Assembly: GCA_030704615.1 (NCBI GenBank)
Contig: CM060734.1
Location: forward strand, 16,244,001 to 16,308,000
Source of the DNA: Takakia lepidozioides
Lineage: Eukaryota; Plantae; Bryophyta
Direction: 5' to 3'
Length of the DNA: 64,000 nt
Part shown: piece by piece, positions 16,130-37,565 of the stretch
How positions within the stretch are numbered: the first letter of the stretch is position 1
Layout: every line of letters starts with the position of its first letter
The notes under the pieces: generated by a model
Databases searched by the model: none
What the model was told of the DNA's origin: nothing
Seen by the model: the letters and a program-made list of their open reading frames with translations, nothing else
Program-made: the position numbers and the translations under genes

Positions 16130-18704
16130 GATGACTTCCTCTGAAGCGGAGTTCTTCTCTGACGACAACCAGTGCCGTTCTCCCAGGAAGTCCTTGACAA
16201 TGGATTTGCAATTGTTCTGGAACATGTCTTGGCTACCCGTTTTCAGCTTTAGAATGGCTCCATCTTTTTGGAGAAAGAGGTGTATGATTTGAAAGGGAAG
16301 TTGCTGAAATACTCTTTCCAAAACCGTGATGAGACGGCTCATGTCAGCCAGTGGAGAGTGCGTCCTGGTCGATACAGAGTACTTGGAGAGCCTCGGCGAA
16401 AGTCCCTTGGGTCATATGTGACGCCGGGACTGCTGCTTCGGTCGTTGAAGACAAGAGGGAGGTGGTGGTGAAAAAGAACAGACGTCCTCACTCCAATCGT
16501 TGAGCTTTCGGATTCGTCCGATGATGACATGAGTGAAACTCCAAATCCAGTCCTTCCTACTGTGGTTGGGAGAAGTTGATGAAGAAGAGATTTGTAGTGT
16601 CATTCCAAAACTACGGGCGATGGAGAGAATGGCTGGATTCAAAAGTGAGTTGCGAGGAATTGATTGGGAATCTTTGAAGCAGGTGCCTGTGAAGTTCTTG
16701 CCAGAGACTTTTGATGGCGATATCCTATTCGAGCTGCCTCCTCCTCCGCGAGTTTGGAGGTGTAACAATCATGATGCATGGAATGGACAAGAAACACGAC
16801 GGGCACCCGTGGTGCAGAACAAAAACATCCAATATTCAGAATGATGACAAGCTTGTTTTCAGGGAGAAACAGTTTGCAATGGACACCTTAGGTGTGATAA
16901 TTTGAATTGCAGACACTTTCTTCAGTCTGGGTCATAATCAAAGCGAATGGGAGGTCTGGCGGAAATCCATTTCAGCCTGGGACTGCCCCACCACCGGCAA
17001 ACACTTTCGTCTGCAAATCTGCAAACTTTGCCATCCTGCTTGGCGCTCTGCAGAGCAAGAATGTACTATGTTGTCCACCGTTTGAAAACAAATGACAAGA
17101 GCTTGTGTGCATTTCGGATTCCATAACCATCCTGTCTCGAAGGGGGATTGCAGGGAGAGTGTTGAGACAGTATTGAGGTTGATTAAACAAGAGTTCGGGA
17201 GAAACCCATCCGTAACAACATCTGCAATTGCTCTTGGCGCAAGCAAGTCCTTCTTGGAAAGCCATATTTTGAGTGAAGGGATTCTGTGGGGACTAAACTT
17301 GACGGTGTAGCATTGGACCTGGTCATGGATCATTTCTCCACTTTGAGTTCACCTAACATTCGGCATCAGATCAATGCATTAAGAATGGGCTCTGGTATCA
17401 GAAGCTACATAGACAACATTTTGGAGTTGAAACGAGTGAGCAAGTACGATTACATCCAGGACAATGTATTCCCAGGTCAAGGTGCCATCAAAGTTTTTTT
17501 TTTCAAAATGTCGACTGTTGGGGAGGGCAGTGGGGTTAGCCTCGTGAAGCAGATGCAGAAGACTGGGGACTTGCATAACTGTTTTCTTATGTTTGATCAT
17601 GTGAAACAAGTGAAGGATTGGACGACAATGGCTTGTCATGTCTACGATCCAGTGTACCAACGAGTTATGACAATTGCAGTTTGTGACATGCAATCCGAGG
17701 ATACAGAATCCCAGAAGCTCATGTGGAATTCCCTGATACGTGTCATGGGTTGCCATGGGCTGCCATCTCCAAATTTTGCAGGTTTCATGGCGGATAGTGC
17801 TCAAGCAAATTTCAATGCTGTTTGTATTGTCTTCGGATCGGGCGACCCAAAAGTGCCAATGCGAGGAAGAGAGCGTACATGTCTATTCCATTGGACACAA
17901 TCTCTGGAAAAACATACAAAGTCAGATATCAAACCAGAGATGCAGACTCAGCACCATAAATTGTGCAAAGAGTACAAAGATGCTAGAACATTGAAGGAGG
18001 CGGACACTTTGTTCAGACAATTCGTGCCTGGTGGTTCTCTTCTGGAGCTGCATCACTTGAGAGTATGAGAGCATTGGAAGATTGGCTGGCGTTTTGGCAC
18101 TTCCGTATAGACAGTGGGGAGCAGCCATGGCAGTGGTACGAGGCTTATATTTCTTGCTTTATTCATACATTTACTTTCCATTTTATTGTCTCATCACTTT
18201 CTTTATGTTGTTTTCTGTTCACTGTTTTGAAGTGTGGTTCTCCACTTTGCAAACATGTCCATTGAGGAAATGGCGGACATGCCATCTTGCAATTGGCAGA
18301 AACTGTGCACAACGCATGGTTGCAGCAGTCAGTCTGGGAAACGAGGTCGGGATTTGTATGTGGCAACAACAGATGATTTGATACGTGCCTTGCAACAACA
18401 AACCCGATACCGTGATTTCTTGCGAGGTGGGGTTGGTGGCAAGGGTCCGGACAATATTGCGTGCTGCAAAAGATCTGGGATCAATCAAGATAGCACGGGC
18501 GGTGAGCATGTATGCCAGGGAACGCACTTGTTTCTAGAGTTCCACATCTTGAAGGGGATGAGAGATTCGGCTCCTGTAAGAGGAAATGGAACACTCCACC
18601 TGGTTCGGATCCGATTCGCCACAGGGCAGACTGTGATAACTTCTCGAAGCCTCGTGTTTCCCTGCATGACAGCTCCATGTCCGGAACCTCCATTGTGGAA
18701 GAAC
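16130..18704 (+). pseudogene. Mutator-like (MULE) transposase with GCM-like Zn domain, N-terminal part; interrupted by the Gypsy insertion
   Basis: GMDKKHDGHPWC..CNGHLRC..HNHP (GCM/WRKY-like), FDH (D1), FMADSAQAN (D2), CLFHW (CxxH), AETVH (E). Removing 18705-30785 restores the frame IVEE-PPTRRQ. Confidence 0.8.
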
Positions 18705-19016
18705 TGTCAAGTTATTTTACCACTAGTGTGAAACTAGCTAGGAAATAGCTATCTTTTACATATTGACATTTGGGATTGGCCCAAGTGTCAATCCAGGGGT
18801 CAAGGCAGATTTAGGCCCTGGACGGCAAGCGCGGGAGGCTCATCTTTCTCGAGTTGAGCCTCACCGCGCCTAGCTATGGCGCCGTAGTGTGGATTCCCCA
18901 TGGCGTGGGGTGCACTTGGCTTGACTTGTATTTGAGTGATGAGGTTATATGCATGAGTTTATGCTTCAGCTTTGTGAGCTCGCATGAGCTCGTGCTTGTA
19001 TTCTTCTTCTTTATCA
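18705..19016 (+). repeat. Terminal repeat A1
   Basis: Matches 30266-30592 except for a 13-bp (GTGGTTATCTTCA) and a 2-bp indel. Confidence 0.92.
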
Positions 19017-20549
19017 CTCGAGAAAGATCAGCTCGTATCTATGAGTGCTAGATACGAGTTAGTTGTAGCACTTGTGGTTTTTGCTTGAGAATGAGAGAAA
19101 CCAAGTTGTTATGCAAGGAGCACCGTGGAGCTCTTGGTTGTTAGAAGCAGGAGGCGATGTGGGTTACGAGGTGGTAAACCTTGGCATTCGATCTTCAGCT
19201 TCAGAGATGAAAGCACCATACTGTAGGTAATTCCAGAGCACCTTGATGGTTTCAGATTGTGTACATGCATGAGCAAGCACGATTGGGAAGAGGACCAGTC
19301 AAGAGCAGGTTATAGTGGCTTTGGTGGCAAAGCTGAGAACTGGACTTGGGAATGCGAGCTGTCATTGTGTGAAGGATTGCAAGACCAAGCGAAAGGGCTG
19401 ATTTGGCTTGGGGCAAATCAGTGCACTTTGTGGAGTATGGTGAGATTGGGTTTCAATCTCGAGCTTCAGCATTGAGAGGCTCTTGTCATGGCAAGAGCAG
19501 GGCTGGAACAGGAGCTAAGAGGTGCGGCAAGGCCATGGAATGTGCACCTAGGGTTTCAGAGCTTGGAAGAAGAGCTCTTGCACCACAAGAGAAGTGTCTT
19601 GTGGCTGGAAATGTAAGCCTTAGGGTTTCAGGAGCTTGGCAAAGGCTATGGAGTGCTTAGTCTTGTCTTAGAGAGCATCAAGGAGCCAAGGAGCCAAGAT
19701 AGGGGCTGATATCTCTTGTGTGAAGAGGTTGCATGTGTGGAGCATGTATTCAACTCATTGAAGCTTCCATCTTCAAGCTTGGAGGGCAAGCAAGGAAGAG
19801 TGGGAAGGGCTAACTTCCCTTATGTGAGGGCAATGCATGTGTGGAGCATGCTATCAGCCTGGTGAAGGCTTGCACTTTTAGGTGTGGGAGTGCAAGGAAT
19901 GAAGGAAGGGGCTGGTTTCCCTGTAGGGCATGTAGAGCATGCTTTCAGCCTGCTGAAGCTTGTATTTTCAGGTTGTGGGTGCAAGAAATGAAGCAAAGGA
20001 GCTGATTCTCTTATGGTGAGAGTGGGGCATGTGTGGAGCATGCCTTCAGCCCATTGAGGCTCTTGTTTTCAAGCCTTAGAGAGCTAGAACGGAAGGTCTA
20101 GGGCTGGTTTCCACTTGGAGTGAAAGAACAGCACTTGTAGGGCCTATGTGAGTTGGGGTTTCAACTTCAAGCTTGAAGGGAGCGCAACTCTTGAAGCAAC
20201 AGGTGTAGAGGGCTGGAATAGCTCTAAGACAGATGCTATGGCCAATGAGGGGAGTGCTTGAATGAGTGCTCACAAGGGCTGGGAACCAGCAGGGCTTGGT
20301 TGTTTGCCATTGAGTTTAGTGGCGTGTTTGGGGAGGCTAAGTGAGAGAAGGCTTGGTTTGTGGCAACCACCTCATGGCTTAGGGCTACTATGGTGGTGTG
20401 TGGGAGCCGAAAGAGCAAGGATACCTTGCTGATTTCCTCACAGCCACCATAGCTCGGTGGAAAGAAGCCTAGAGTCCAAGAGACACAAACCCTAGCTTGG
20501 CGTGGCTAAAACCCCTTGGAGAAATGGCTAACTGCCAGAGCGGCCATGT

Positions 20550-21795
20550 GTGGGGCTGTGACAGGCTGTGGCAAGCTGTGACGGGCTTGCTGTGGCAAGC
20601 TGTGACAGGCTGTGCCATGTGATGGCTGTCAGCTGTGACGGGCTGTGCCCAGTGGCTTTGGGCTGTGACGGGCTGTGCGGGGCTGTGACGGGCTGTGCCC
20701 TGAGGCCTGTGGGGCTGTGATGGGCTGTGACAGGCTGTGCCCAGTGGCCTGTGGGGCTGTGACGGGCTGTGAGGGCCCTGTGGCTGTGTGGGCTGTGATG
20801 GGCTGTGACAGGCTGTGCCCTGTGCCCTGTGGGGCTGTGACGGGCTGTGACAGGCTGTGCCTGAGGCCTTGGGGCTGTGACGGGCTGTGAGGGGCTGTGA
20901 CATGCTGTGCCCTGTGCCTGTGGGGCTGTGACGGGCTGTGTCAGGCTGTGCGAGCTGTGACGGGCTGTGCGGGGGCTGTGACAGGCTGTGCCCTGAGGCC
21001 TATGGGCTGTGACGGGGCTGTGACAGGCTGTGGCGAGCTGTGACAGGCTGTGCCCATGGCCTTTGGGGCTGTGACGGGCTGTGAGGGGCTGTGACAGGCC
21101 GTGCCTGAGGCCTTGAGGCTGTGACGGGCTGTGAGGGGCTGTGACAGGCCGTGCCCATGGCCTTTGGGGCTGTGACGGGCTGTGAGGGGCTGTGACAGGC
21201 CGTGCCTGGGGCCTTTGGGGCTGTGAGGGGCTGTGAGGGGCTGTGACAGGCCGTGCCATGGCCTTTGGGGCTGTGACGGGCTGTGAGGGGCTGTGACAGG
21301 CCGTGCCTGAGGCCTTTGAGGCTGTGAGGGGCTGTGAGGGGCTGTGACAGGCCGTGCCCTAGGCCTTTGAGGCTGTGACGGGCTGTGATGGGCTGTGGCA
21401 AGCTGTGACAGGCTGTGATGGGCTGTGATGGGCTGTGACAGGCTGTGCCCTGTGCCCTGTGAGGCTGTGAGGGGCTGTGACAGGCCGTGCCCATGGCCTT
21501 TGGGGCTATGTGGGATGTGAGGGGCTGTGACAGGCCGTGCCCATGGCCTTTGGGGCTGTGAGGGGCTGTGAGGGGCTGTGACAGGCCGTGCCTGAGGCCT
21601 TTGGGGCTGTGACGGGCTGTGAGGGGCTGTGACAGGCCGTGCCTGAGGCCTTTGAGGCTGTGAGGGGCTGTGAGGGGTGTGACAGGCCGTGCCTGAGGCC
21701 TTTGAGGCTGTGACGGCTGTGAGGGGCTGTGACAGGCTGTGCCCAGTGGCCTGTGGGACTGTGACGGCTGTGACCAGTGAGCTGTGTGGGCTGTG
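20550..21795. repeat. GGCTGTGA minisatellite (10-bp unit, ~50-bp higher-order unit) in the element's long 5' leader
   Basis: About 1.25 kb of GGCTGTGAC/GGGCTGTGAG with recurring GGCCTTTGGGGCTGTGAC. Confidence 0.92.
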
Positions 21796-22512
21796 CTGGT
21801 CTGTGGTGGCCCGTGTTGACCTGTGGACGGCTTGTGCTGACTCGTGGAGGCACTGGTGGACTGCCTAAGGACTGGCATGTGGTCTGGAAGGCCGAATTTT
21901 GAAGCTCGTGGAGGGCGGTTTGAGGAGTATCTTCATGATATTCCCATGGTCATGCAAGTGAGGATAGAGAGGAGAGGCAGAGTGTTGGGATGAGAGCATG
22001 CTGGGGTTAGGCATTGCTTTAGCTTCTCTTCCTCGTAGTTTCCACCCTCTCATTAGGCCAAGACCTTTCCGTAGGTGGAGGCAAGAGTCAGTCCGGGTTT
22101 GGGCTGGGGTGTCCTTGCAGGAGCAACACCGTGGAGTTGTTTTTGGTGTGGGGGAGTTGTGTCGTTCTGATTTCTTGTGTTTGGATCCCCTCCATACCTG
22201 CATGCTTGACTGTGCGCCATGCTAGTTTTGTGTGGGCGCTTGTTTTTATAGGTGATTGGTCCGGATTTGATCACCGGCCAGTCCTAGAGCATGCTGTCGA
22301 TGGTGAGGCTGGGGTGATGACCAGCCAGACCATCATTGTTTCTCCTGTGGTGAGGTTGGAGGTGATGACCAGCCAACCATAGGAGTGCTTGTGGTGGATG
22401 CAGGTACAGGTGTAGGCTATGTTAGGAACTTAGTATTCCAAACCATAAGCCGCAACAGGTTCTCTACCCGGTTACCTTGTGAAGAGGGGGTTAGGGACAT
22501 GTTCATGACCGG

Positions 22513-25070
22513 TTGAGTGTCAACACGGAGGTGCCACTAGTTGCTGGGGACAGTGCCGGTTCGAGCACTAGCGATACTAGTGGGTACACGAGACGAGGTG
22601 TGCGGTTTAGGCCACCTTCACCTCCTGTGTCTTCCACGGAAGTTTCTGATTCGGATTGTGAATCAGGAGGGCTCATACCGGCGGTGCAAGTTGTTTCTTT
22701 GCCATTGTTGTGGGACACAATGGAGGAGATGTATGGAGCTACCAAGGGGCCACGAAGGTACTCTGGGGCGGTGGGCACCATCGAGTTGGATGATTTTATC
22801 CAAGAGTTTGATAGTTGGTGTGATTTGCAGCAAATGCGCAATCCACAACTATTTACGCCTTTCATGGCATGGAAGGGGCTGTTTCAGCACCTTGAGGGGC
22901 CGCCTATGGATGATTACCATGAGTTCAGGCGGGGGCATGAGGTTGAGATCGAGGAGTGGAGGATGTACTGGTCACCCGACTATGTCTCCATCACTAGGGG
23001 CACTAGAGCCACGAGGGCAGTGGCTACACCTGCCGCTGCACCGGCAGCTTCAGCAAGTAGCAGTGGGACTGGTGGTACAGTAGCTACGACATCCACCCAA
23101 GCCACTACCGCACCAGCACTAGCACCCGTGCCTGCCTTCAACCCTGTTGTGGAGTTCTTCGAAGAGTTGAGAGGGAACTACCAAGGGGTGAGGACAGAGA
23201 AGTTGCGGAGCTTGCAAGAGTTCCAACGGAAGCCGACCGAGAGCTTGAGAGAGGCTTTCACTCGCATGAGGCGCTTGATAAATGTAACCCAAGGGGTTAC
23301 GGAAGCTCAGGCAGTCCAATTCTGGTATGGGATATTGGACAAGGAGCTGAGGAGAAGGGTGCGGGATGCAACTCTCCTACAAGCGGCCCAACCCACCTTA
23401 GCAAATGTGTTTTTGCTGGCAGAGCGGATAGAGCTCAACATGGTGGAGGAACGAGTGGTCATGGTGGGATTTGCTAAGGAGACACCACGGGGTAGTGGTG
23501 CTCCTAGCCAACCACTACCTCAACGTGCTCAAGGCAACAAGGGGGCTCAGGTGAAGCTCAGGGAAGGGCAGAGAGGACCTCAGATGCAGGGGTCTCTCCC
23601 TTCATTTGCTGGCCAACAACGGGCGGATGTGGTGTGCTGGACATGTGGAGGACCCCATGTCAAGAAGATTGTCCAGAGGGAGGCAAAGGGTCGGCACATG
23701 CACAGCCTGCACAGTTACAGTGTGGGCATTGTGGCAAACACGGGCATGGAGAGGCTCAGTGTTATGGTTTGCATCCTGAGTTGCGCCCAGGCCAGTTCCA
23801 AGGGAACAATGGTGGCCGGGGGCGAGGTGGAGCAGCCCAGAGAGGACGAGGTGGCCAGCCACGAGGTGCAGGCCAAGGGCAAGCTCAACGTGGCCAAGGA
23901 CGCGGAGGTCAGGGTGTTGACCAAGGCATGGCCAACCGCTTCAGCAGCTAGAGCAGAGGCTCGCTGCCATGGCTACAGCTCAGGTGGTACCGGCTCTAAG
24001 GCCGGATGGTCCACCTCCTGCTCCTGAGGGAGGAGATATGGGAGGCATGGGATTCATGTGTGGAGCAGCACTACCACTAGTGCAGGTGGAGTCTGCTGCA
24101 GCCGTGACTCGAGGAGCAGCACGAGTTCCTGAGCCACGAGGTGCAGAGGTGGAGTTGGATCCACAGCGTGGGGAGGCAAGCCGTCAGGCTAGGCTTCCTC
24201 AGTCATTCACATTGGCGGAGACAGTGTCGACGCCATCCATGGCACCTAGTTCTCGCCCGACTGTTACCGAGGCGGAGGTCACTATGCCATTGGGGAGAGC
24301 TACACGGGTAGCACCACTACCTAGTGTTGCCAAGGCTACGGCAGCTAGTGTGCTGCTAGGAGCGGCCACATCTGTGTGCCAGGCTCCATTGTTCTCGGCT
24401 ACCATGATTGCGACGCCGGGGGTAAGACCAGCTGAGGTGTTCAGGCTGGCAGCTACACTCTGTGAGAGTGGGGAGGTTACTTCATCTTCTGCGGAGATAG
24501 TGGGAGGTGTAGTGCCGGAGGGATCCTCGGATTTGAGGGTCAAGACTGCCACGGCGGCGCCATGGCAAGCTGCAGCTGCCAGGTTGATGGAGCTGCCAGC
24601 TAGGCCAGCCATTGAGCGCGCCATGGTGACACCTGGAGTTGTCATGTTAGACAACCAGGATGGCATTTTCTGTTTGAGTGGACCGGCAGGCAAGAGGTAC
24701 CGGCCACTGCGAGTCTTGTTGGACTCGGGAGCTCAGCCACTGATGCTGGGCAGAGCTGCTATTGCAGGCTTGGGCCTCACGGAGGCGGATATGGAGCCTT
24801 GTCCTTTCCAGATACAGACGTCTCTGGGAGGATCGGAGCAGGCTCGGGGCATGACACGGCATGAGTTGGCTATCAGACTACGGCCGGATCACCCTACAGA
24901 TGGCTCAGTGATGCGAGCCAAGGCCATTGTGACAGACGCAGTCTCATACGATGTCCTGGTTGGTGGGGCAGTGTTGTACCCCATGGGCTTCACCCTGGAT
25001 TTTGGGAGGAGTCAGCTTCCTATAGGCCTGCATGGCAGTCAGGGGAGGGCCGGCGTGTGCAGCTCCCTGT
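22513..25070 (+). CDS. gag: Gag (two Zn knuckles) and aspartic protease, frameshifted
   Basis: Retrotrans-gag-like FQRKPTESLREAFTRM. CWTCGGPHVKKDC and CGHCGKHGHGEAQC knuckles. VLLDSGA and YDVLVG protease motifs. Three single-base frameshifts (~23665, ~23945, ~25003). Confidence 0.85.
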
Positions 25071-25429
25071 GACGTTCATAGGAGGAGTTGCGGTTGCCCA
25101 GCGAGGCAAGATGCCGACACTAGCAGCATTCACAGCGGCAGTGAATTGGCCTAGAGAGTTGCTTGAGGGCAATGCTCATTCAGAGGATGTACCACCTTCG
25201 GGAGAGCAGGATGACATGTATGGTATGGCGGAGTTGCCTACCATGGTTGCTCAGACTCCATTGTGGGGCACGAGCAAGGATTTGCAGCGGGATGCTGATC
25301 GACGGGTGCAACAAGCCTGGGTGGAGGCTTTTGTACCGTCAGGAGAGGAGGAGAGTGTGGGGATTGCACCAGGACCACCTCAATTGTCTCCATTGGACAC
25401 CACACCTATTGTGTGGCAGTCTCCGGATG

Positions 25430-26400
25430 AAGGCATTTGTCTTCTGGACTTGTTTGGCGGGATCAGCACCGGATTGGCTGCTGTGTTACAGGCAGGTGTA
25501 CGAGTTCGGCGTTACCTGTATGTGGAGAGGGATGAGACTGCACGACGCGTTTCACTTCGCCATGTTGCTCAGTTGGTGCAGCGGTACCCTGAGTTGTTGT
25601 CGGTGTCTGCAATTCGTGGATATCAGCAGGCCTTGCCAGCAGACATTTCGTTGCTGGGGGCGCAGGATTTGGAGCGGGTTGGCTCCATTGATCTGGTAGT
25701 GGCAGGTTGGCCCTGCCAAGGGCATTCATCAGCCGGGCATGGCAATGGATTGCGAGACTCGAGGTCGGGTCTGTTTTGGGAGATGGTGCGGGTTTTGCGC
25801 CACTTGCAGCTTCATCAAGCTGTATCTCCAGCATACATCTTGGAGAATGTGCCACTGATGGGCAATTCTCGGGCCAGGGTGATGGCCAGTGTGCATCAAG
25901 TCCGGTCGTGGCTTGGGTCAGCAGTGTTGCTAGATGCAGCTACAGTGGGGTCACGGGCTCATCGTCCACGGCTATGGTGGACTAACATGATGCCACCCGC
26001 ACTGCTCAAGCGTGCATTTGATGGGGTGCAGCGGCCAGCACATCTCACAGTGGATAACATTCTGGACACAGGGAGGCAGTCTCAACGTGTGAGACACGAT
26101 GACCGTTCGCCTTTGGCAGTGGTCAACAAGGTGGGTCAACCACGAGCAGCATTACCTACACTGCTCAGCTTCCCAGGATCGCATGCTTTCCGGGATAGTG
26201 GACCTGGCCTCCTGTGGGATGCTCAGTTGCAGCAGTTAGTGGAGCCTAATGCTGACGAGCGTGAGCGGGCAATGGGTTTTACCACTGGTACCACGGCGGT
26301 GTCGTCTCTTTCTGAGGCATCACGTCGTCAAGTGTTGGGGCAAGCAATGGATCTCAATTGCTTGACCTGGATTATCAGCTTGGCTCTAGCTGAGCAACGC
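25430..26400 (+). CDS. C5 cytosine DNA methyltransferase domain (DNMT3-like) within pol (ORF 25057..26613)
   Basis: Motif I LDLFGGI, II YVERD, III ADI, IV AGWPCQGHS, V SGLFWE, VI YILENV, VIII AHRPRLWWTN, IX ERERAMGF, X RRQVLGQAMD, all in one open frame. Confidence 0.95.
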
Positions 26401-26840
26401 AGAGTGCGGAATACACTTCCCTCAATGGTCTCTCTGCCTACCGAGACGGTACAGGCAGTGAGTGGGGGCGAGCATGTGAGGACCACGGGGTGCATGCATC
26501 CATGGCACACGTGGGAGGTGCTCGAGGTTCAGAGAGAGTTGGCAGCCAAGGCGGCTGTGATGGATGAGGTTGGGGATTCTTCTCAGTTGAGGAGGTCCTC
26601 AAGGATGAGATGATGGGGCAGGATGATGCCTTGTCATTGACTGAGCAGGTAGGGAGTACTGCTCAAGAGGTTGCAGCATAGCAACCACGGGACGCGTCCT
26701 CTACCTCTAAGCCCACTGGACTTAAGGTTGTAGTTACGGAGGACAATTGGGAGCCTGACATTGGACCCATTGTCACCGGAGGAGAGAGACGACGTATACG
26801 GCGGTTCCTGAGGGCTTACAGGAATTGCTTTGCCTTCAGT

Positions 26841-29816
26841 TTGAAGGACTTGGGAGCACTGAAGGGTCAAGAGATCCGTATTGAGTTGGCCACTGACACG
26901 CCAATCTTTCGGAGACCCTATAGATACAGTGACATGGAGAGGTCTTTGATTCAGATGAGGACTCAAGATCTCTGGGAGGCAGGTTTGGTGGAGCTCTCTG
27001 GTGGAGAGTATGCTTCAGCCACAGTGATGCCAGCCAAGAAGGATGTCTATGGCAATTGGACGGAGAGACGTATGTGCGGTGATTACCGGCCTGTAAATCG
27101 TCAGACCAAGTCCGATAAGTATGCCATGCCAACACCAGAGGAGATCTTTGATGCCATCGGGCATGCTAAGGCCTTTAGCACTTTGGATTTACGATCCGGA
27201 TATCACCAGTTGCCAATCAAGGAGGCGGACAAGCAGAAGACGGCATTCTGGGGGATCAATGAGCACGGCAAGGATTGCCTATATCAGTGGCGGTTCTTAC
27301 CATTTGGGCTTAAGAATGCTCCTGCAGAGTTTCAGAGAGTCATGGATAGGATTCTAGCAGGGGTGGACTTTGCTCGGTGCTACATAGATGACATCATCAT
27401 CTTTAGTGTTACGATGGAGGAGCATGAGAGACACCTTCAGGTGGTATTGGAGCGCTTGAGAGCGCACGGATTGAAGTTGCATCCGGGGAAGTGCAAGTTT
27501 TTCCACAACCAGATTGAGTATCTGGGTCACATGATATATCCTGGAGGATTGGGGGTACAGCAGACTAAGGTAGAGGCCATTGCACAAATTCCACGCCCCA
27601 CGGATGTGAGCCGAGTTCGAGCTTTCATGGGGTTGGCAAACTATTATAGACGGTTTGTCAAGGGATTTAGTACCATTGCAAAGGCTCTAACCAAGCTGAC
27701 CAAGGTGGACCAGGAGTGGCAGTGGGAAGATGAGCAGGAACGAGCTTTTCAAGAGCTCAAGGCGAGGTTGACCTCGGCGCCTATCTTGAGACGACCTATC
27801 AGGGGGCGTCCCTTTCAGCTGCATACGGATTGGAGCATGCTGGGGCTTGGAGCGGTGCTCACACAGGTGGATGATGAGGGAAGAGAGTTCGTAGTGGCTT
27901 ACGCTAGCCGCTCGAACAACGCTGCAGAGGCTAAGTACAGCTCATATGAGGGAGAGTGCTTAGCTGCAGTGTGGGCCGTGGCACACTTCAGGTGCTATCT
28001 ATACGGCAATCTTTTCACCCTTGTCACGGATCACCAGCCACTCAAGTGGTTGATGGAGTCAGACAAGCTTACAGGGAAGCTTGCACGGTGGGCACTTATA
28101 CTCCAGGAGTATGACTTTCAGGTTGTGCATCGACCGGGTTTGGTCAATCGGGATGCGGATGGATTGAGTCGCAATCCATGCATGAGCCAGCAGGATGACA
28201 CTGGAGCTCGGTGGCATGGTGAGACGGACGAGGAGATGGTGCCGGGATGGCACGCATCTGCATTTTTGTGTATCTTGGCATCGGGAGGTCAGATTGGACC
28301 TACAACAGGGATGACTGTAGACGGAGTGTCTGAGGACCCTGAGGCTAGTGATGAGCTAGGTGGTGCCAGAGATATACATGAGGATTCGGCTGTGTTGGAC
28401 TACCTCCGCACGGGAGACACGGCAGCCATTGTGACTGCCAGGGAGAGGGATCGGATCCTGCAACGAGCCAAGAGGTTCAAGTGGGAGGGGATACACCTAC
28501 TTCGAGTGTGGGAGGATGGTCGGGTGAGGATTGTGCCTCACCCCACACAGCGTGCACGGTTAGTGCGGCATGCCCATGAGGAGTTGGGGCATTTTGGAGT
28601 GCGACGCACTCACAGTTTACTGCAGGGGCAGTATTGGTGGCGTGGTATGCATACAGAGGTGCAACAGTTTGTGGCTAGGTGCATGGTGTGTGACAGGGTG
28701 CGTGCTTCATTCAACGCCCCTACACCACAGTTGCATCCTTTACCTATCATGGGATTGGGCTACAGGTGGAGTCTTGACTTCGCAGGACCGTTGCCACTGA
28801 CTATGCGCCACCACAGATATGTGTTGGTGATGGTGGAGCACTTCTCCAAGTGGATTGAGTTGGTTCCATTGCCTGACAAGGCTAGTGAGGGGGCTGCGTA
28901 TGCATTCTTGGATCGTGTGCTTAGCCGATTTGGTGCTCCAGCTGAGGTACTCACGGACCAAGGGAGAGAGTTCTTGGGGGAGTTTCAGGCTTTGTGTGAT
29001 AAAGCCTTGATAGACCACCGCACCACTTCTCGGGATCATCCTGAGGCCGATGGCTTAGCAGAGAGAGTTGTTCAGACGGTGAAGAGGGGTTTGCGCAAGT
29101 ATGGCTTGCAGAAGGGACACCTAGGAGATTGGGATCTTCAGGTTCCTTGGTTAGCCATGGGCTACAGGTTCAGCAAACAAGCATCACTTGCCTCCTTCTC
29201 ACCATATTTCCTTCTCTTTGGCCGAGAGCCGGATTTGCCTGCAGCCATTCGTAGGGACACTGCTCAAGTCCTTAACCTTGACGATCCGGACGTGTGGGTA
29301 CGTGCATGTGATCAGCGTGCAGAGTTGTTCAAGAAAGTCATGCCCATGGCTTTTGAGAACCTTGCCATTGCACAGCACCGTGATACGTTGAGGTATGCCA
29401 CTATACGTGGTGGAGGATATCGTCCTGGGGTTCGGAGGTTTAGCCCTGGTGACTATGTTTATTTGCAGCAGACTGCTCCTACGACTCTGGATGTTACTGC
29501 AGGGCGTGTTATTCTGAGGGTTCGAGAGGTGTTGCCCTCAGGGGTCCTGATCTTAGAGGGTCGGGATGGCATGACTTGGAAAGACCATGTGCGTAATTGT
29601 GCGCCATGTCACCTTCCCAATGTCGATGGCAGAGTTGACCCAAACTTGGCAGTGGTACCTGCAGGTTTGAGGTGCATGCTCTGTGGGTCTGCCAAAGGGG
29701 CAGCCACCATGCTGGTGTGTGATCGGTGCTCAAGGGGTTGGCATATGGGATGCTTGACACCACCTCTTGAGAAGGTGCCTGACGGAGATTGGTTGTGTCC
29801 ACACTGCTTGGGATAG
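26841..29816 (+). CDS. pol: Reverse transcriptase, RNase H, integrase and C-terminal PHD finger
   Basis: RT LDLRSGYHQ, LPFGL, YIDD. RH TDWS, ECLA, TDH, DADGLSR. INT H-H-C-C, DFAG, TDQG, AER. PHD C4HC3 CMLC..CDRC..H..C..WLCPHC. 991 aa open. Confidence 0.95.
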   Translation: MKDLGALKGQEIRIELATDTPIFRRPYRYSDMERSLIQMRTQDLWEAGLVELSGGEYASATVMPAKKDVYGNWTERRMCGDYRPVNRQTKSDKYAMPTPEEIFDAIGHAKAFSTLDLRSGYHQLPIKEADKQKTAFWGINEHGKDCLYQWRFLPFGLKNAPAEFQRVMDRILAGVDFARCYIDDIIIFSVTMEEHERHLQVVLERLRAHGLKLHPGKCKFFHNQIEYLGHMIYPGGLGVQQTKVEAIAQIPRPTDVSRVRAFMGLANYYRRFVKGFSTIAKALTKLTKVDQEWQWEDEQERAFQELKARLTSAPILRRPIRGRPFQLHTDWSMLGLGAVLTQVDDEGREFVVAYASRSNNAAEAKYSSYEGECLAAVWAVAHFRCYLYGNLFTLVTDHQPLKWLMESDKLTGKLARWALILQEYDFQVVHRPGLVNRDADGLSRNPCMSQQDDTGARWHGETDEEMVPGWHASAFLCILASGGQIGPTTGMTVDGVSEDPEASDELGGARDIHEDSAVLDYLRTGDTAAIVTARERDRILQRAKRFKWEGIHLLRVWEDGRVRIVPHPTQRARLVRHAHEELGHFGVRRTHSLLQGQYWWRGMHTEVQQFVARCMVCDRVRASFNAPTPQLHPLPIMGLGYRWSLDFAGPLPLTMRHHRYVLVMVEHFSKWIELVPLPDKASEGAAYAFLDRVLSRFGAPAEVLTDQGREFLGEFQALCDKALIDHRTTSRDHPEADGLAERVVQTVKRGLRKYGLQKGHLGDWDLQVPWLAMGYRFSKQASLASFSPYFLLFGREPDLPAAIRRDTAQVLNLDDPDVWVRACDQRAELFKKVMPMAFENLAIAQHRDTLRYATIRGGGYRPGVRRFSPGDYVYLQQTAPTTLDVTAGRVILRVREVLPSGVLILEGRDGMTWKDHVRNCAPCHLPNVDGRVDPNLAVVPAGLRCMLCGSAKGAATMLVCDRCSRGWHMGCLTPPLEKVPDGDWLCPHCLG

Positions 29817-30060
29817 TGGCAGTGGACATGACTGGAGGCAGCTAACAAGACATGGGAGGCCAAGCTCATAGGAGTCAATACATAAGATCCCAAGCTCAAG
29901 TTCACGGTTGCAAGACGGCGACTAACGATGGGGCAACTCTTGCACCCGGCCTCTTGATCTATCGAGTTTGAGTGTAGTAGGGATAGTGGTGGAGGACTTA
30001 GTGAGGCTATGGTCACTATCACATCTTGTGGCTACCTGGACTTAGAGGGACCTAAGCACC

Positions 30061-30074
30061 AGCTAGGGGGGCGA
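30061..30074 (+). promoter_or_regulatory. Polypurine-tract-like site upstream of repeat B1
   Basis: AGCTAGGGGGGCGA immediately before B1. The same sequence precedes B1' in the second copy (32327-32340, minus). Confidence 0.7.
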
Positions 30075-30781
30075 TTGTGTGGACTAGTGACTGCCATAGT
30101 GGGCAGCGTAGTGGCAGCCTAGTGACTGACTAGTTGTAGCCTAGTGGTTGGACTAGTGGCTGGACTAGTGGTAGACTAGTGGTATACTAGTGTGTGGTGT
30201 GCACATGTGTTGTGTGGTTTTGGACAGCGATGTAGTTGTGTAGCGATATGTATGCGCACGACAGCTGTCAAGTTATTTTACCACTAGTGTGAAACTAGCT
30301 AGGAAATAGCTATCTTTTACATATTGACATTTGGGATTGGCCCAAGTGTCAATCCAGGGGTCAAGGCAGATTTAGGCCCTGGAGTGGTTATCTTCACGGC
30401 AAGCGCGGGAGGCTCATCTTTCTCGAGTTGAGCCTCACCGCGCCTAGCTATGGCGCCGTAGTGTGGATTCCCCATGGCGTGGGGTGCACTTGGCTTGACT
30501 TGTATTTGAGTGATGAGGTTATATATGCATGAGTTTATGCTTCAGCTTTGTGAGCTCGCATGAGCTCGTGCTTGTATTCTTCTTCTTTATCATTGTGTGG
30601 ACTAGTGACTGCCATAGTGGGCAGCGTAGTGGCAGCCTAGTGACTGACTAGTTGTAGCCTAGTGGTTGGACTAGTGGCTGGACTAGTGGTAGACTAGTGG
30701 TATACTAGTGTGTGGTGTGCACATGTGTTGTGTGGTTTTGGACAGCGATGTAGTTGTGTAGCGATATGTATGCGCACGACA
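30075..30781 (+). repeat. 3' terminal B1 (30075-30263)-GC-A2 (30266-30592)-B2 (30593-30781)
   Basis: B1 equals B2 (189 bp, no differences seen). The junction GACAGCTGTC is a perfect palindrome. Confidence 0.92.
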
Positions 30782-30785
30782 GAAC

Positions 30786-31540
30786 CTCCAACACGACGGC
30801 AAGCTCCAGCATCAAACACTGCCACTGAAATGGTGCAGGAGAGAAACAACCCCCTTGATGTGCTTGAGTCCGCATGCCCCGACCACGTTTGGCACATAGA
30901 ACGCACGAGTGTAGGGTCTCGTGTGAAATGTACAGCGATCAGGGCAACTAATTTCGAGAAGTGCACTTCATCTATATCCAGAGGTGGTGCCCGAACTCCT
31001 GCTCCGACTTTCACGGGTTTGATGCGTCCATACGGTCAACCAGAAGCCAAGAACCACAAGTTCTGGTTCTGCGCAGATGATTGTGCCAGATGTGTGCATG
31101 GAACTGTGCGTCCTTCCGTAGTGATGAAGCCATCTCCTCCAACCGTTTGGCCCATGAAGGTGGGAACACATCTCATATTTCAAGAGATTGAAATGCTGGA
31201 GGAGGCAGGCTTTTCCCTTGCGAGACAACCCCAACTCCATGCATGTGCTACTACTTCTACGTCCTCCCGGGTCCCCCCGGCAAATCCTGACTTGTGGCCA
31301 ACCAAACGAGATGGAAAGTTCGTTCGGCGTTTCCCTCCAACTGCTGAACACTTTGGCAAAATGGAGTCCGCAAGAATGCTCCAAGCTCGTGTTGGAAGCA
31401 CCACGGAAGTACCCGATCTAGGATATGGTCGGGTATTCACAATCATCACTTCCACATCTGCTGTTCATGACAGGACCTACGACATCACGGTTTCCAATTT
31501 CCCCAATTGCACATGTCCTGATTTTGTGAATATGCTATCT
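30786..31540 (+). pseudogene. MULE transposase C-terminal part with Cys-rich region and truncated SWIM finger
   Basis: KFWFCADDCARC, YDITVSNFPNCTCPDF. In frame with 18512..18704 and homologous to 51065..51661. Confidence 0.8.
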
Positions 31541-31794
31541 GTCGAATGGCTTTTACTCACCCATCCCTTCGCTATCCGAGGTGGAAACTCCAAGATAGAA
31601 GAGTTGGATATTTCTAAGCACTCAGCCCGCTCAGTACAATCAGTCATGACCTACAGCTAGTGAATCATGGTTGTGCTTCCCAATTGTATTCCTTCTTGCC
31701 TTCATGTTATCAATTCACCTTATCTGATATTGAAGCATCAGATTACTTCAGTATCTACTTAATTCCAATTAATCATGCATTCATTTCACAGCTT
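31541..31794 (-). mobile_element. Fragment of the non-chromovirus Gypsy 5' region
   Basis: Matches 7605-7860 and the reverse complement of about 55200-55457. Confidence 0.85.
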
Positions 31795-32999
31795 TGTCGT
31801 GCGCATACATATCGCTACACAACTACATCGCTGTCCAAACCACACCACACATATATGCACAATAAAGTAGTCTGCCACAATGGATAAGAAAACTAGATAA
31901 ACACACTGTTTACACAAGAAAACAACATGAATCCAACAGCATCACTCTTTAAGATAATAGTTGAGCCAGGGGCACCCCAAGCTATGGGGACTCCACCCCA
32001 CAACAACCTACACTCTCATCATAAGCACACTCAGATCTGAAGCGATGAAGGAGCTCGGTCGCGCAGGCTCAACTCGAGAGAGATGAGCTGCGCGACTGCC
32101 GCTCTCGTGAAGATAAGACGGACCAGGTGTCAAACTAAACTTGACACCTGATTTAACACTTGACCTAAATCCAAGTGTTAAATACAAATAACTAGTTTTA
32201 TTCTAGCTGTTTTCACACTGTGCTTATTTAACTTGACAGCTGTCATGCGCATACATATCGCTACACAACTACATCGCTGTCCAAACCACACCACACATAT
32301 ATGCACAATAAAGTAGTCTGCCACAATCGCCCCCCTAGCTGGTGGATAGGTCCCTCTACCTCCAGATAGCTACAAGATGTAATAGCCACAGCCGTACTAA
32401 GTCCTCTATCACTGTCCCTATTGTACTCAAACTCTATAGACCAAGAGGCCGGGTACAAGAGTAGCCCCATCGTTAGTCGTCGTCTTGCAATCTGTGAACT
32501 TGAGCCAGGATCTCGTGTGTTCAAGGTCTCCTAGTAGCTGGGCCTTGCGTTTCTTGTTAGCCTTCCATGGTTGTATCCACTCCCACTATCCAATGCAATG
32601 TGGACATAACCAATCCCCATCTGGAACCATCTCAAGAGGTGGAGTCAAGCATCCCATATGCCAACCTCTAGAGCATCGATCACACACCAGCATGGTGGCT
32701 GCCCCTTTAGCAGACCCACACAACATGCACCTCAAACCTGCAGATACCACTGCCAGGTTTGGGTCAATCCTGCCATCGACATTCGGAAGGTGACATGGCG
32801 CACAATTACGCACATGGTCCTTCCAAGTTATGCCATCCCGACCCTCCAAGACCAAGACGCCTGAGGGCAAGACCTCTCGAACCCTCAAAATAACACGTCC
32901 TGCAGTCACATCCAGGGTCATAGGAGCAGTCTGCTGCAGATAGACATAGTCACCAGGGTTGAATCTCCGAACCCCAGGACGATAGCCCCCACCACGTAT
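31795..32999 (-). mobile_element. 3' end of a second, diverged member of the PHD/split-repeat Gypsy family
   Basis: Integrase C-terminus and PHD (32586-32999) near-identical in protein to 29400-29816. B1' 32241-32326, GC, A2' 31881-32238, B2' 31795-31880. Junction TGACAGCTGTCA. Confidence 0.9.
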
Positions 33000-35022
33000 T
33001 GTCGCGGCCCATTGCCTTGAGGGCAGGGGGTCAGGACACATGAGGGGCTGCCCCTGTGGTGGGGGCAGCGGCAGCGATAGGTATGGGGGGCTGAAGCACC
33101 CTTGAGTGCCCAAGGCACTCAGGGAAGCGAAGGCGCTCACTAGGTGGAGCCCCGCACACCGGGTTGCGGTGGGGGTGGCTCCATAAGGGGTGGTGGTAGC
33201 TTAGCGGGACTTAGTGGGGGTGGCATAGGACTCACCATGGGAGCGGAGACCTCGTGGTGGGAGTCGTGGGGAGTCTTGGGACTCATCGCGGTCCATAGGG
33301 GCCGTGGTGAGCGGGCCAAGACTCACCGCGACTCATCACCGGGAGTCGAGGGTTTTCGTGGTGGTTCGCCATAAAATGGCATGGCTGGTTGTGAAACCCC
33401 CGCGGACACCTACAGAAGTATATATAGGGAGTAGTAACCCCGAGAACGGTGCAAGCCCGTTGGTGACCAAAAACTAGTGAGTAAGCGAGCGAGCCGGAAA
33501 GCGACCAAAGAGTGGGGAGCTGTTCCGGACTGCCATCTACCAAAGGGAATTCTCCTAGTCCCAAATAGGTGGAGGGTTTAGTGGGAAGCGAAGGGGGACC
33601 GTTATGTCCCGGTGAGCAGCCGAAGCTCCAAGTTGGCCCGGGCGGCCAGGTTGGGAGTCAGGTGCGCGCATCAAAGCGAGTAACTATGACTTGAAGGGGA
33701 GCTTACCAAAGTGAGGTGCGCGACACTTGGTATCAGAGCTTAGAGTTTAGTACGCGATTGTCCTTGGGATTGGCCTCATCATGGGGTCGGGCAAGCCGAA
33801 GCGAAAGCGGAACGGCCCAAAAGATGATGATCCCGGTGAGCCCGATGGGGGCGGCGTGTCACCGAGGCGGCCGTTTGAGGAAGCGATGCATGTTTCCAAA
33901 AACGAGGCCGCCCAAGAGCGGGAGGAATCCGAGGAGTCGGAGCCCGAGGAATCCTTGAGAGCTCCGACAAACCAAGAGATGCCTCCCATGCCGGCAGCCT
34001 TGTGGGAAGGGTTGTTGGCGCAGTTTGGCGGGACGTTGAAAGACGTGTTGAAGGCGGCTAATGCCACTTCCGCTAAGGCAAAGTTTAAGGTGAAGCCTAA
34101 GGAACCCGGCACCTTCGAGGGCGTCCGAAATCGGAAGGCACTCAACACCTGGCTCCTGGAGCTAGAGCAGTACTTCCGGGCGGCCAAGTTGAGTGACGAG
34201 GATCGGGTGGAAGTGGCTCCCACCTATTTGAGGGGCTATGCTCAACAATGGTGGCAGAAACGCCTTCATGACCGAGGCCCAAGCCCGGAAACCTTGAACT
34301 GGAGTGGGTTCAAGGAATTGATGAAGAGACAATTTGTGCCCTCAACGCGTCCTGGCTCGCCCGGGACAAGATGAGGAATTTGAAGCAAACAGATGACATT
34401 CGGGGATATGTCCAGGCTTTCAATGTGATGTTGCTCGAAGTTGCGGACATGGCAGAACCAGAAATGGTCTTCAACTTTGTGGCGGGACTGGCCCCATGGG
34501 CCAGGTGGAAGTTGGAGGAGAAGCCACCCAAGACTTTGAACGAGGCTATTGAGAGGGCTGAATGTTTCTCAGATGTCCCTAGGGGTGAAAGACAAGGCCG
34601 TACGGAGCTGAACCACAAGAAAATTCGGCGGGAAGGTGACTCCTTCCGACCGGAAAAGAAGTGGGATAGGCCACGTGGCAAAAATGGCACGTGGAAATCG
34701 AAGGGAGGGCCTTCACACGTCAAGGCGGCACCCGGTGCTTCGAAAGGAAAAGCGGGTGGAGCGGCTTATGGCGGACAGAAGGCGACCTTTGATGGAGTGT
34801 GTTTCAATTGCGGGGAGCCCGGGCACATGGCCAAGAAGTGCACGAAGCCCCGACAATTGAACATGACTCGAGCGACCACGGAGCTGTCGGAAGATACCAT
34901 CAGTCGCTTGGTGGAAGCGGTGGTCGCCAGGACTTGCAAGGTAGGCAAATTTTCTTGTGAGTTGTATCAGGAAACTGGCGCCTTACGAAAAGGGAGTCAG
35001 TTATTGTTCGTGGATGGGATAA
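33000..35022 (+). mobile_element. Chromovirus Gypsy 5' LTR (33000-33725), PBS-Met and gag; 3'-truncated
   Basis: TGTCGCG...CGCGACA LTR. TGGTATCAGAGC at 33728-33739. Gag ORFs 33781..34374 and 34371 onward, with CFNCGEPGHMAKKC. Confidence 0.92.
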
Positions 35023-35205
35023 AACATTGCCGAACCTCCTTCATCGGGAGGTCCTTCTCCCCCTATGACCGTGAAACCCTAAACCCTATTCCCGCGGACA
35101 CTCATTTCCGGAAAATAGTCCCGCTCATGTTTTTTTCGACACTTACGACTCTGCTCATGGCTCATGCCGCTCATGGCTCATGGTTCATGAAATAGCAGCC
35201 CCCCT
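35023..35205. mobile_element. Terminus of a MULE-like element (similar to 52600-52850)
   Basis: GCTCATG repeats ending CATGAAATAGCAGCCCCC, versus CATGGAATAGCAACCCCC at 52833-52850. Confidence 0.5.
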
Positions 35206-35209
35206 CCCT

Positions 35210-35770
35210 AGATGCTCCTGAGGTACATGTCTGCATCACAGAATGTAACCCGGATAAAGACATCCTACACATCTCCCCCATTTTACGTCTTGGCAAACGT
35301 CTGTCCAAGCTATATGCCCCCCAAGGTCGCTATATGGGACTCATCCCGAATGACCGACTCACTTGGCTCTGGCACAGATATTCTACTTCAAGCCCACCAT
35401 CCAGCCAGCTCACGCCAGATAGGCAAGACTTTGCCATAGAAGTCTGCTGGCTCGTAGACCGCTATCTGATTGATACCCCTCCCAAAAAACCTCGCTCCAC
35501 CCTCAAGCTCACACAAGCCTAGTCTCTTACTACCCTCCCCCCAGACGTTCTTGCACTCCTTATAGATTCCTTCCAAATCACGCACTCTTACTACTCGAGC
35601 CCACTTACTGCCCCATGCTCCTCTCATCATACTCCAGCTCGCACCCCGCGACTGCCTATTTGGAGCCACTGGCTCTGCCTCCCAACACACCTGGGCCGGC
35701 CGCGGTTATGCACACCCGCCCCCAGGCTCTTCCACGCATGACGCTTTGCAATGGGCCCACCTCGCGGCTC
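35210..35770 (+). pseudogene. Dualen/RandI-like LINE, post-RT region with PCIF1-like methyltransferase remnant
   Basis: ECNPDKDI, RLTWLW. Frameshift-corrected SPLT..YSSSHPRDCLFGATGSA..WAGRGYAHPP. Confidence 0.55.
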
Positions 35771-37565
35771 AATAAGTCGAGGAGGTTCAAGAACCGAGAA
35801 ACGGAGTATCTCGTCAAATGGAAGGGCTATCATCATGTGGAGGCATCTTGGGTGCGTGCCTCAGAAATGGGAAACGCATCCGAGGCGGTTGCAATTTTCG
35901 AAGGGCGACCTCAAAAACGGAAGCAGCGTTGATGGGGACATCAACCTTGGAGCATGGGGGAGGAAATGCATGCTTAGCCCGACTTAGCTAGCTTAGGAAT
36001 CCGATTGCAAAAACTTGTATTGTACAAAAATTTGTTATAAAGGAAATGGGTTCCAAATGTTGTGCGTCCTATTTTGTTTGGAATGGTGATGCATGGTGTG
36101 GTTGGCTAGTGTGTAGAATGCATGCTAGCTTACAAAAGTGGGAGAGGTAAATTGGGTTAATTGTGTGTTTGCGCAGTGCCGAAATCGGGTGACTTCCATC
36201 CAAAGGGGCAAGGAAACTTGCGCCTTCTTTAGGAGTTCACGTGCTAGTGCGCACCTGGCGCGTGCGCATACTATAACTGCGCTACCGAGGGGGTTGCTTT
36301 GTAGTGCGGGCTAACGCGGAAGCTACGTGCTTCCGTTCACGTACTCGTGTAGCCTCGGGATGAAGTCGTAGTGCGGCTTCGGCGTGTTCCCGTACCTCAG
36401 GCCAGCATTCCAAGGCGGACCCAATTGTAGTGATTGGGGCGCGCGGTTGGTTCAAGGTTATCTTCCTAGTCAAAGAGGGTTTGAGGTGAACCCTTGCTCA
36501 AGGTGATGCCAAAAGCGGCATCATGAGCAGTCGCAAGCAATGTTGTTGCAATAAGGCGATTCAATCCTCGGGGAGGATCGTTCCTTGGCCTTGAAGTAGG
36601 CCAAGAAGAGTGCACTGGGAGAAGCTTGAGAGGCTCCACCCTTGGCCGGGACTTGGAGGAAGTCGGCCGAACTAGCTAGTGAAGAGTAGAGTCAAGTGTG
36701 GGGTTTGGTTATTTCCCATGGGACGCCATGGTACGGAAACAAACTCCTTGATGTGGGACGCCACAACTTGGATGTTCGTTTCCACAAAATGTACAAGCCG
36801 ATGAGGACATCGACTCCCTGTTGGTAGGGGTGTGTGTCGCGGCCATTTGCCTTGAGGGCACGGGGTCGGGACACAAGAGGGGCTGCCCCTGTGGTGGGGG
36901 CAGTGGCAGTGGCAGCGATAGGTATGGGGGGCTGAAGCACCCTTGAGTGCCCAAAGCACTCAAGGAGGCGGAGGCGCTCATTAGGTGGAGCCCCGCACAC
37001 CGGGTTGCGGTGGGGGTGGCTCCACAAGGGGTGGTGGTAGCTTAGCGGGACTTAGTGGGGGTGGCATAGGACTCACCCTGGGGCGGAGACCTCGTGGTGG
37101 GAGTCGTGGGGAGTCTTGGGACTCATCACGGTCCATAGGGGCCGTGGTGTGTGGGCCAAGACTCACCGCGACTCATCACCGGGAGTCGAGGGTGTTCGTG
37201 GTGGTTCGCCATAAAATGGCATGGTTGTTTGTGAAATCCCCGCGGACAGCTACAGAAGTATATATAGGGAGTAGTAACCCCGAGAACGGTGCAAGCCCAT
37301 TGGTGACCAAAAGCTAGTGAATAAGCGAGCGAGCCGGAAAGCGACCAAAGAGTGGGGAGCTGTTCCGGACTGCCAACTACCAAAGGGAATTTCGCTGGTT
37401 CTAAATCGTTGGAGGGTTCTTTGGGAGATCAAGGGGGGACCGTTATGTCCCGGTGAGCAGCCAAAGCTCCAAGTTGGCCCGGCGGTCAGGTTGGGAGTTA
37501 GGCGCGCGCATCAAGCGAGTAACTATGACTTGAGGGGGGAGCTTACCGAAGTGAGGTGCGCGACA
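35771..37565 (+). mobile_element. Inverted 3' part of chromovirus element: chromodomain C-half, 3' UTR, PPT and 3' LTR (36835-37565)
   Basis: ETEYLVKWKGYHHVEASWV chromodomain. LTR matches 33000-33725 and 42724-43447. Flank CAGTG is the reverse complement of CACTG at 43448. Confidence 0.88.

Follow-up and report, generated by a model that had tools for sequence, protein, structure and literature searches.

Why a transposon keeps an enzyme that silences it is an unanswered question, and it is raised by a locus of the bryophyte Takakia lepidozioides. The window studied here is the whole stretch of 64,000 nucleotides from position 16,244,001 to 16,308,000 of contig CM060734.1 (assembly GCA_030704615.1), and it holds a Ty3/Gypsy retrotransposon with a complete DNMT3-like cytosine methyltransferase. 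DNMT-bearing retrotransposons have so far been known from algae and dinoflagellates, which are hard to work with. A sequence-only reading of the window had described a young element with the enzyme inside pol, and had proposed that the enzyme is packaged and methylates the new cDNA or the insertion site. Here we compare the element with its relatives, and conclude from sequence comparison that the DNMT-bearing Gypsy element is a selected, green-plant-wide feature. Close relatives occur in Marchantia polymorpha, a genetic model for which methylation mutants exist, and this makes the question amenable to testing.

The DNMT3-like domain and its relatives

The methyltransferase domain is intact and lies on the forward strand at 25420..26403 within open reading frame (ORF) 24865-26613, as the last domain of ORF1. 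The C5 methyltransferase motifs stand in a single frame, as had been claimed: LFGGI (25450), YVERD (25519), WPCQ (25708), ENV (25843), AHRPRLWWTN (25957), ERERAMGF (26257) and RRQVLGQ (26323) occupy 25450-26343 of the stop-free 24865-26613. The extent first given, 25057..26613, has to be narrowed to a catalytic domain of about 25420-26403; its start at 25057 falls in the linker between protease (PR) and DNMT. The PF00145 check that had been proposed returned a match above cut-off (E 5.9e-13). Among sequences with solved structures DNMT3A matches best (E 1.3e-11), followed by DNMT3B/3C, DRM2 and HhaI, and the AlphaFold model (pLDDT 87.6) finds its best Foldseek superposition on DNMT3A/B (E 7e-20, TM 0.73/0.83). 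Linear motif order, sequence matches and predicted fold all support the DNMT3 type, and by these measures the domain is a DNMT3-like C5 methyltransferase and a predicted enzyme. Of 200 full domains, 194 retain the catalytic Cys, 199 the Glu of ENV, and 194 and 196 the two Arg of RxR.

Relatives were collected by several searches. A search for longer proteins gave 67 matches, headed by M. polymorpha with 76% identity over the domain, and a near-length search gave 297, with Calypogeia fissa, Sphagnum troendelagicum, S. tenellum, Riccia sorocarpa and M. paleacea among the 120 listed. Searching with the reverse transcriptase (RT) added Klebsormidium nitens, Closterium, Tetraselmis and Tetrabaena, and a profile search gave 507 clusters at E<=1e-30. 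No fern, lycophyte or seed plant is named among the DNMT matches listed, and viral contigs yielded a single distant match (L081, 36% over 140 aa). In addition, 80 related loci were found. Named matches lie on land-plant contigs of 18-49 Mb, and in Riccia the genes R1sor_014310 (DNMT) and R1sor_014311 (RNase H and integrase, hereafter RH and IN) are adjacent. Relatives on contigs of Marchantia, Riccia, Calypogeia and Sphagnum thus place the element in land plants and dispose of algal contamination, and the PR-DNMT-RT order, conserved in about five divergent families, rules out a one-off capture. Both had been named as grounds on which the sequence-only reading would fall.

Neutral evolution, a third such ground, is likewise ruled out by the ratio of nonsynonymous to synonymous substitution rates (dN/dS). 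For the unsaturated pair L036/L037 it amounts to 0.136 in DNMT, 0.121 in PR and 0.176 in RT, which indicates purifying selection on the DNMT; RT values of pairs involving L003 are unreliable because of a frameshift. Between closer families the proportions of nonsynonymous (pN) and synonymous (pS) differences are 0.18-0.25 and 0.65-0.78, which is saturated.

Trees were built by FastTree with local supports, from 157 sequences and 407 columns for RT-RNase H and from 244 sequences for DNMT. By RT-RNase H the window falls together with Calypogeia, Marchantia, L004, L024 and L036 (0.93 with P0328-P0340), this group is sister to K. nitens plus Closterium (0.91), and both together obtain 0.97. Tetraselmis and the elements of RH-DNMT-IN order (0.85, including Monoraphidium) fall outside these two clades. 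The DNMT tree has the same outline, with 0.946 for the window clade and 0.927 for the relocated form with P0066. The suspected link to the Klebsormidium elements is thereby supported, as three K. nitens RTs stand in the sister clade; a DNMT is absent from all four K. nitens proteins annotated, and these are thus only candidates for the published elements.

The relocated form, which occurs in chlorophytes, is a second architecture, with DNMT after RT-RNase H and/or directly before integrase, seen in P0028-P0030 and P0043 (Monoraphidium) and in traces in Tetrabaena. Among the best 150 proteins of the profile search the DNMT follows RT/RH and/or precedes IN in 82, follows Gag/PR or precedes RT in 13, and is without another domain, by BLAST with the window domains, in 55. 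Because the relocated elements form one clade in both trees, DNMT appears to have moved within pol, and a single ancient capture, followed by vertical inheritance among green plants and a later relocation inside pol, would be the simplest reading of the trees. P0043 also has a Tudor-like domain after its PHD finger, P0445 is a Gypsy protein with a Dam domain and a PHD finger before IN, and P0062 is an RT-DNMT-Dam protein.

Such elements evade LTR-finding tools (LTR, long terminal repeat) and surface in bryophyte annotations as host 'DNA methyltransferase' or hypothetical genes. The Marchantia gene models P0001-P0009 and P0394 (Mp4g09160, Mp8g17980, Mp6g11220, Mp2g26090 and MARPO models) are fragments of this retrotransposon, and one of them is named DNA cytosine methyltransferase in UniRef.

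Structure, priming and integration of the element

The element spans 18705-30781 (12.1 kb) and ends in TGTC...GACA. The target-site duplication (TSD) had been called intact and is so: GAAC, 4 bp, stands at 18701..18704 and, by repeat and end analysis, at 30782..30785. Contigs of all four sequencing runs examined connect both flanks without the element; this joint fixes the element ends and not an insertion polymorphism, since the flank, probably itself a repeat, has about the same depth of coverage as the element. The contigs placed along the full element number 115,953 and 145,279 in two runs, a depth that suggests many copies but is not itself a copy number. Parts of the window are present in 15 sequencing runs of 7 studies, with at least half of the sampled words in 10 runs; no RNA run is among those listed, which has no bearing on expression.

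On the forward strand the order is A1, leader, ORFs, B1, GC, A2 and B2. Repeat A1 (18705..19016), with a TGTC start and a TCA end, is the 3' part of a permuted LTR (B+A), of which B1 (30075..30263), with a GACA end, is the 5' part. Then follow A2 (30266..30592) and B2 (30593..30781), the latter equal to B1 and supplying the GACA of the right end. The internal B-A junction, GACA-GC-TGTC at 30256..30275, is an uncut copy of both integrated ends with a 2-bp spacer. The identity of the B repeats noted earlier was borne out over 190/190 nt, and the A copies show two indels (13 and 2 nt) but not a single substitution over 312 nt, so that the insertion is recent.

The long 5' leader (19033..22719) contains degenerate repeats of about 100 nt at 19703-20095 and a tandem array of 10-nt units at about 20550-21800. 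It is followed on the same strand by gag (22720..23935), with a weak PF03732 match under cut-off and a CCHC zinc knuckle beyond a frameshift near 23667, and by the aspartic protease piece (23921..25072), whose catalytic DSG lies at 24722 and which is frameshifted near 23937 and 24999; the relatives P0010, P0015 and P0021 have Asp_protease_2 matches. ORF2 (26682..29816) encodes RT (27066-27536), RNase H (27723-28112), the integrase zinc finger and core (28542-29042) and a PHD finger (29673-29807). This copy has gag, PR, DNMT and RT-RH-IN-PHD on four separate ORF pieces that use three different frames, the breaks lying near 23667, 23937, 24999 and 26585. Other copies, from four runs, show a one-base length difference at three of these sites and loose ends at the fourth, and these data do not distinguish mutation from long-read assembly error. 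Over 18500-31000 twelve well-supported length differences of 1-2 bases from other copies were counted, three of them at frameshifts, and the assembly may hold long-read errors. The placement 'inside pol' stands insofar as DNMT lies between the protease DSG and the YIDD of RT (27381); it does not stand as a statement on pol, for there is no continuous pol frame and DNMT ends ORF1, which is Gag-PR-DNMT.

The PHD finger is best matched by those of CHD4, KDM5A/B (PHD1), ATXR5, PHF21A, UHRF1 and AIRE, and the CHD4, KDM5 PHD1, ATXR5, PHF21A, UHRF1 and AIRE fingers read unmethylated H3K4. A regular expression for an aromatic cage, since set aside, had no match in it. The element is not a chromovirus, as the integrase C-terminus bears this PHD finger and not a chromodomain.

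Membership of Ty3/Gypsy follows from the PR-RT-RNase H-integrase order with a DDE integrase and from TG...CA ends with a TSD in the range of 4-6 bp (GAAC in the window, AAGG in L052). The element departs from a canonical LTR element in two respects. Its left end is A and its right end B-A-B, not the same LTR at both ends, and a scan for tRNA-Met, the only tRNA scanned for, found no such primer-binding site in it, a self-complementary site standing there instead; neighbouring elements have a tRNA-Met site at 33728 and 42710. This self-priming site (19017..19032) lies immediately 3' of A1 and is complementary at 15/16 nt to a stretch in A (18838..18853), the probable RNA 5' end and self-primer; both lie on the forward strand. 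Self-complementarity after A, which ends TCA, extends over 15-22 nt in four of the five elements tested, by means of three different sequences (window 15/16, L005 16/17, L052 21/22, L036 15/15), and 0/200 shuffles matched the score of the window. A hairpin with an 11-bp stem occupies 19032-19060, right after the site. At the other end, the polypurine-tract-like CAGCTAGGGGGGCGA (30060..30074, forward strand) abuts B1, and the same motif occurs in 8 related loci.

With a polypurine tract before B and a self-priming site after A, the LTR expected from reverse transcription is B+A and the product B-A...B-A, whereas the ends that were actually inserted lie within this unit. The A-B joint is precise, the CA-NN-TG form of the B-A junction is kept in L005, L016, L029, L036, L052 and L073, and the TSD of L052 has 4 bp. 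Taken together, the A...B-A-B layout, the self-priming site and the junction indicate a permuted LTR, for which the best explanation is that a two-LTR circle was integrated; the inserted A...B-A-B would be such a circle opened at one of its two junctions. Similar routes are those of the abutted-end circles of IS3/IS30 and of PAT/Ngaro split-direct-repeat elements, whose A...B-A-B layout is explained by circle integration with a tyrosine recombinase. The permuted repeats would point to natural DDE integration from a circle. Assignment to DIRS, PAT or Ngaro was rejected, as rve and H2C2 are present and the element ORFs gave no match to a tyrosine recombinase.

The stop before the reverse transcriptase and the role of the enzyme

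A TAG at 26679-26681, in the RT frame, splits the DNMT side from RT, likewise in unbroken relatives, and with the following CAACCA (26679..26687, forward strand) forms a CARYYA read-through context. Among 82 sequences (81 loci and the window) 55 cover the linker from the end of DNMT to the beginning of RT, and 47 of them are distinct at 97%; a TAG or TAA with CAR-YY-type context, 179-204 nt ahead of the RT match, is present in 46/47, against a background of at most 7/47 at any other linker codon. Most of these loci represent one family, and about five divergent families are independent (window, L004, L002-type, L036/L037, L040). Locus L036 has Gag-PR-DNMT-RT-RH-IN-PHD in one frame, with TAG CAGTTA at the DNMT-RT linker as its sole stop between 973 and 8227. 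Among the 67 long homologues 19 are Gag-PR-DNMT proteins that end 73-164 aa past the DNMT domain. In tobacco mosaic virus CAR YYA after UAG is essential for read-through, at 6-32% in plants, according to the available text of PMC2754532, and the self-priming element Tj1 requires its gag-pol stop, according to that of PMC4600332. RT-RNase H-integrase-PHD is therefore likely to be made by TAG read-through, for which the CARYYA context suggests a rate of a few to tens of percent. DNMT and PR would then be made at Gag level and RT and IN at a level several-fold lower, a layout under which methyltransferase should greatly outnumber RT and integrase.

A model for the whole can be composed from these features. 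Translation of ORF1 would make Gag, protease and DNMT abundant in the particle, and read-through of the conserved TAG would add RT-RNase H-integrase-PHD. Self-primed reverse transcription would produce B-A...B-A linear DNA, and the DDE integrase would open a two-LTR circle at one CA-NN-TG junction to leave the inserted A...B-A-B. The protease would presumably free the DNMT, which would be packaged and methylate the cDNA or the circle, such that a new copy may be methylated already when it arrives in chromatin, the site being selected by a PHD finger of the type that reads unmethylated H3K4. Taken as one, this Gypsy element with Gag-PR-DNMT in ORF1, Pol by read-through and a packaged methyltransferase acting on new DNA seems to us somewhat probable. 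Only tentatively, and with less confidence than that, would we extend it to an ancient green-plant-wide lineage of self-primed elements that carry DNMT3 at capsid stoichiometry by read-through, methylate cDNA in the particle and have a DDE integrase open a closed two-LTR circle, a route not used by ordinary retroviruses and LTR elements, and whose DNMT3 may write in trans on bryophyte genomes.

Several observations weigh against this. The window copy is frameshifted at four places, and decayed L002-type copies have dN/dS of 0.48-0.93, as expected for dead copies. L073 is without a self-priming match. The stop context is CAACCC in 38/46 loci, all of one family, and thus deviates from CARYYA at the last base (5 have exact CARYYA and 3 others), and the stop is not universal, as the algal P0027, P0032 and P0403 and P0026 and P0340 of the land-plant clade continue DNMT into RT. 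The domain of KnitGypsy-Dnmt3, from K. nitens, gave no methylation in yeast, which its authors, in the available text, call inconclusive, human DNMT3B giving none there either (PMC5890265).

Methylation footprints do not separate host from element methylation. The CpG observed/expected ratio is 0.43-0.63 in the element versus 0.81 in the neighbouring Gypsy, and the C-to-T spectrum of 18 L002-type copies is 0.14 in CG, 0.18 in CHG and 0.01-0.11 in CHH. An alternative, which we regard as unlikely although not remote, is that DNMT does its work in the nucleus and not on particle cDNA: during integration, or afterwards on inserted copies and their flanks, with the PHD finger of the integrase as its guide. 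The resemblance of the PHD finger to readers of unmethylated H3K4, to which the DNMT3A ADD domain offers a parallel, would suit it, as would the 82 of the best 150 proteins, Monoraphidium P0043 included, with DNMT after RT/RNase H and/or directly before integrase. In the branch of the window, however, the stop, RT and RNase H stand between DNMT and integrase, and the C-to-T decay of old copies is the usual plant CG/CHG/CHH pattern with nothing element-specific.

We consider it improbable that the domain is kept for another role, be it methylation of element RNA or nucleic-acid binding in the particle. Gag-level expression suits structural use, the Klebsormidium domain was inactive on DNA in yeast, and RNA methylation is raised for a LINE-borne DNMT by de Mendoza et al. 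in the available text (PMC5890265). Against such a role, fold and sequence are nearest to DNMT3A/B, which are DNA enzymes, the related SymbioDIRS-Dnmt3 domains methylate CG de novo (available text of PMC5890265), and the near-invariant catalytic residues exclude a purely structural role, although not RNA activity.

Slightly more improbable still is that translation truly ends at the stop, with Pol reached by splicing or internal initiation. The Marchantia models P0003, P0004 and P0007 do link DNMT to RT while omitting the stop region, the commonest context is not CARYYA, and no strong RNA structure was found 3' of the stop (z -1.2 to -2.0). Yet the three models differ in their junctions and two lose conserved linker residues, as is typical of automated stop avoidance, whereas families whose synonymous sites are saturated still share the frame and the CAR-YY context; the stop needed between gag and pol of the self-priming Tj1 also speaks for read-through (PMC4600332, available text). 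That the domain is a one-off capture or a neutral passenger, or the locus an assembly chimera or algal contaminant, for which the four frameshifts of the window copy might be cited, is hardly conceivable in view of the 80 loci, the 507 clusters, the purifying selection, the named matches on long land-plant contigs, the adjacent Riccia genes, and the recurrence of at least half of the sampled words in 10 runs.

Genomic surroundings and comparison with known systems

The insertion target (17277-18731 and 30782-31660) resembles a repeated transposase-type gene with a Cys motif that we take to be SWIM-like; it is without a Pfam match, and a protein-atlas search with the right-flank ORF gave nothing usable. 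Next to it, at 31795-33005 on the reverse strand, another related element (86% identical in DNA, 96% in PHD amino acids) is represented by its 3' end. It has B-A-B repeats and a GACA-GC-TGTC junction of its own and is truncated at 33005 by a further insertion. At about 33001-37567 (forward strand) follows a non-autonomous LTR element with gag only, the tRNA-Met site at 33728 and two LTRs that agree at 675 positions and disagree at 43. The element at 38045-42710 (reverse strand), which served as outgroup, is an ordinary frameshifted Gypsy with gag, PR, RT, RH, IN, SH3 and a tRNA-Met site. More decayed RT fragments lie at 9227-9802, 52961-53842 and 59114-60704. Arrays of the 10-nt GGCTGTGA-like unit occur at 6051-6277, 8213-8450 and 54585-54794, besides the one in the element leader. 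No tRNA genes were found in the 64-kb window.

The claim that no land-plant family had been described agrees with the open literature, where none was found; subscription journals, Repbase and Dfam lie outside this search, and a catalogue entry is possible. Later papers call Gypsy-DNMT3 elements streptophyte and, in their available text, name no land plants (PMC12344493; bioRxiv 10.64898/2026.05.21.726589), and the available text of PMC6453930, PMC7466625, PMC9033089, PMC2864245, PMC11982613 and PMC9946827 contains no mention of them that we found. Neither was an earlier description found there of the gene layout and predicted replication signals of the window element.

Among known systems, Troyka was rejected as a relative, having CG...CG ends, a 3-bp TSD and animal hosts (available text of PMC12440569) against TGTC...GACA and a 4-bp TSD here. 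PAT/Ngaro elements have A...B-A-B in common with the window element, in which no tyrosine recombinase was found. EpiLTRs and DAM-LTRs are likewise LTR elements with methyltransferase and chromatin-reader domains; theirs are a DNMT4-related domain at the pol 3' end, together with DAM and a chromodomain, and the streptophyte Gypsy-DNMT3 is treated as a separate acquisition (bioRxiv 10.64898/2026.05.21.726589, available text). Tj1 and Tf1 also have a primer-binding site complementary to sequence inside the 5' LTR and an in-frame stop that reduces Pol relative to Gag, but theirs are ordinary LTRs, the stop follows Gag and not Gag-PR-DNMT, and there is no methyltransferase (PMC4600332, available text). 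SymbioDIRS-Dnmt3 is a retrotransposon-borne DNMT3 too, shown to methylate CG de novo in yeast, in a tyrosine-recombinase DIRS of dinoflagellates (PMC5890265, available text), whereas here a DDE integrase makes the TSD.

The nearest system is KnitGypsy-Dnmt3 of K. nitens, for which Gypsy domains, DIRS-like repeats and Ka/Ks below 0.2 are reported in the available text (PMC5890265). The Gypsy domain set, an intronless, non-rearranged Dnmt3-like domain with its key residues, DIRS-like repeats and purifying selection are the same in both. The hosts here are land plants, and DNMT closes ORF1 before an in-frame stop, whereas in KnitGypsy-Dnmt3 DNMT and RT have an open Pol frame in common. Self-priming, the CA-NN-TG junction, a 4-bp TSD, the green-plant-wide range and the RH-DNMT-IN form were not found in the available text of its description (PMC5890265). 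As judged from trees and layout, the window element is a land-plant sister variant of KnitGypsy-Dnmt3 and not the same family.

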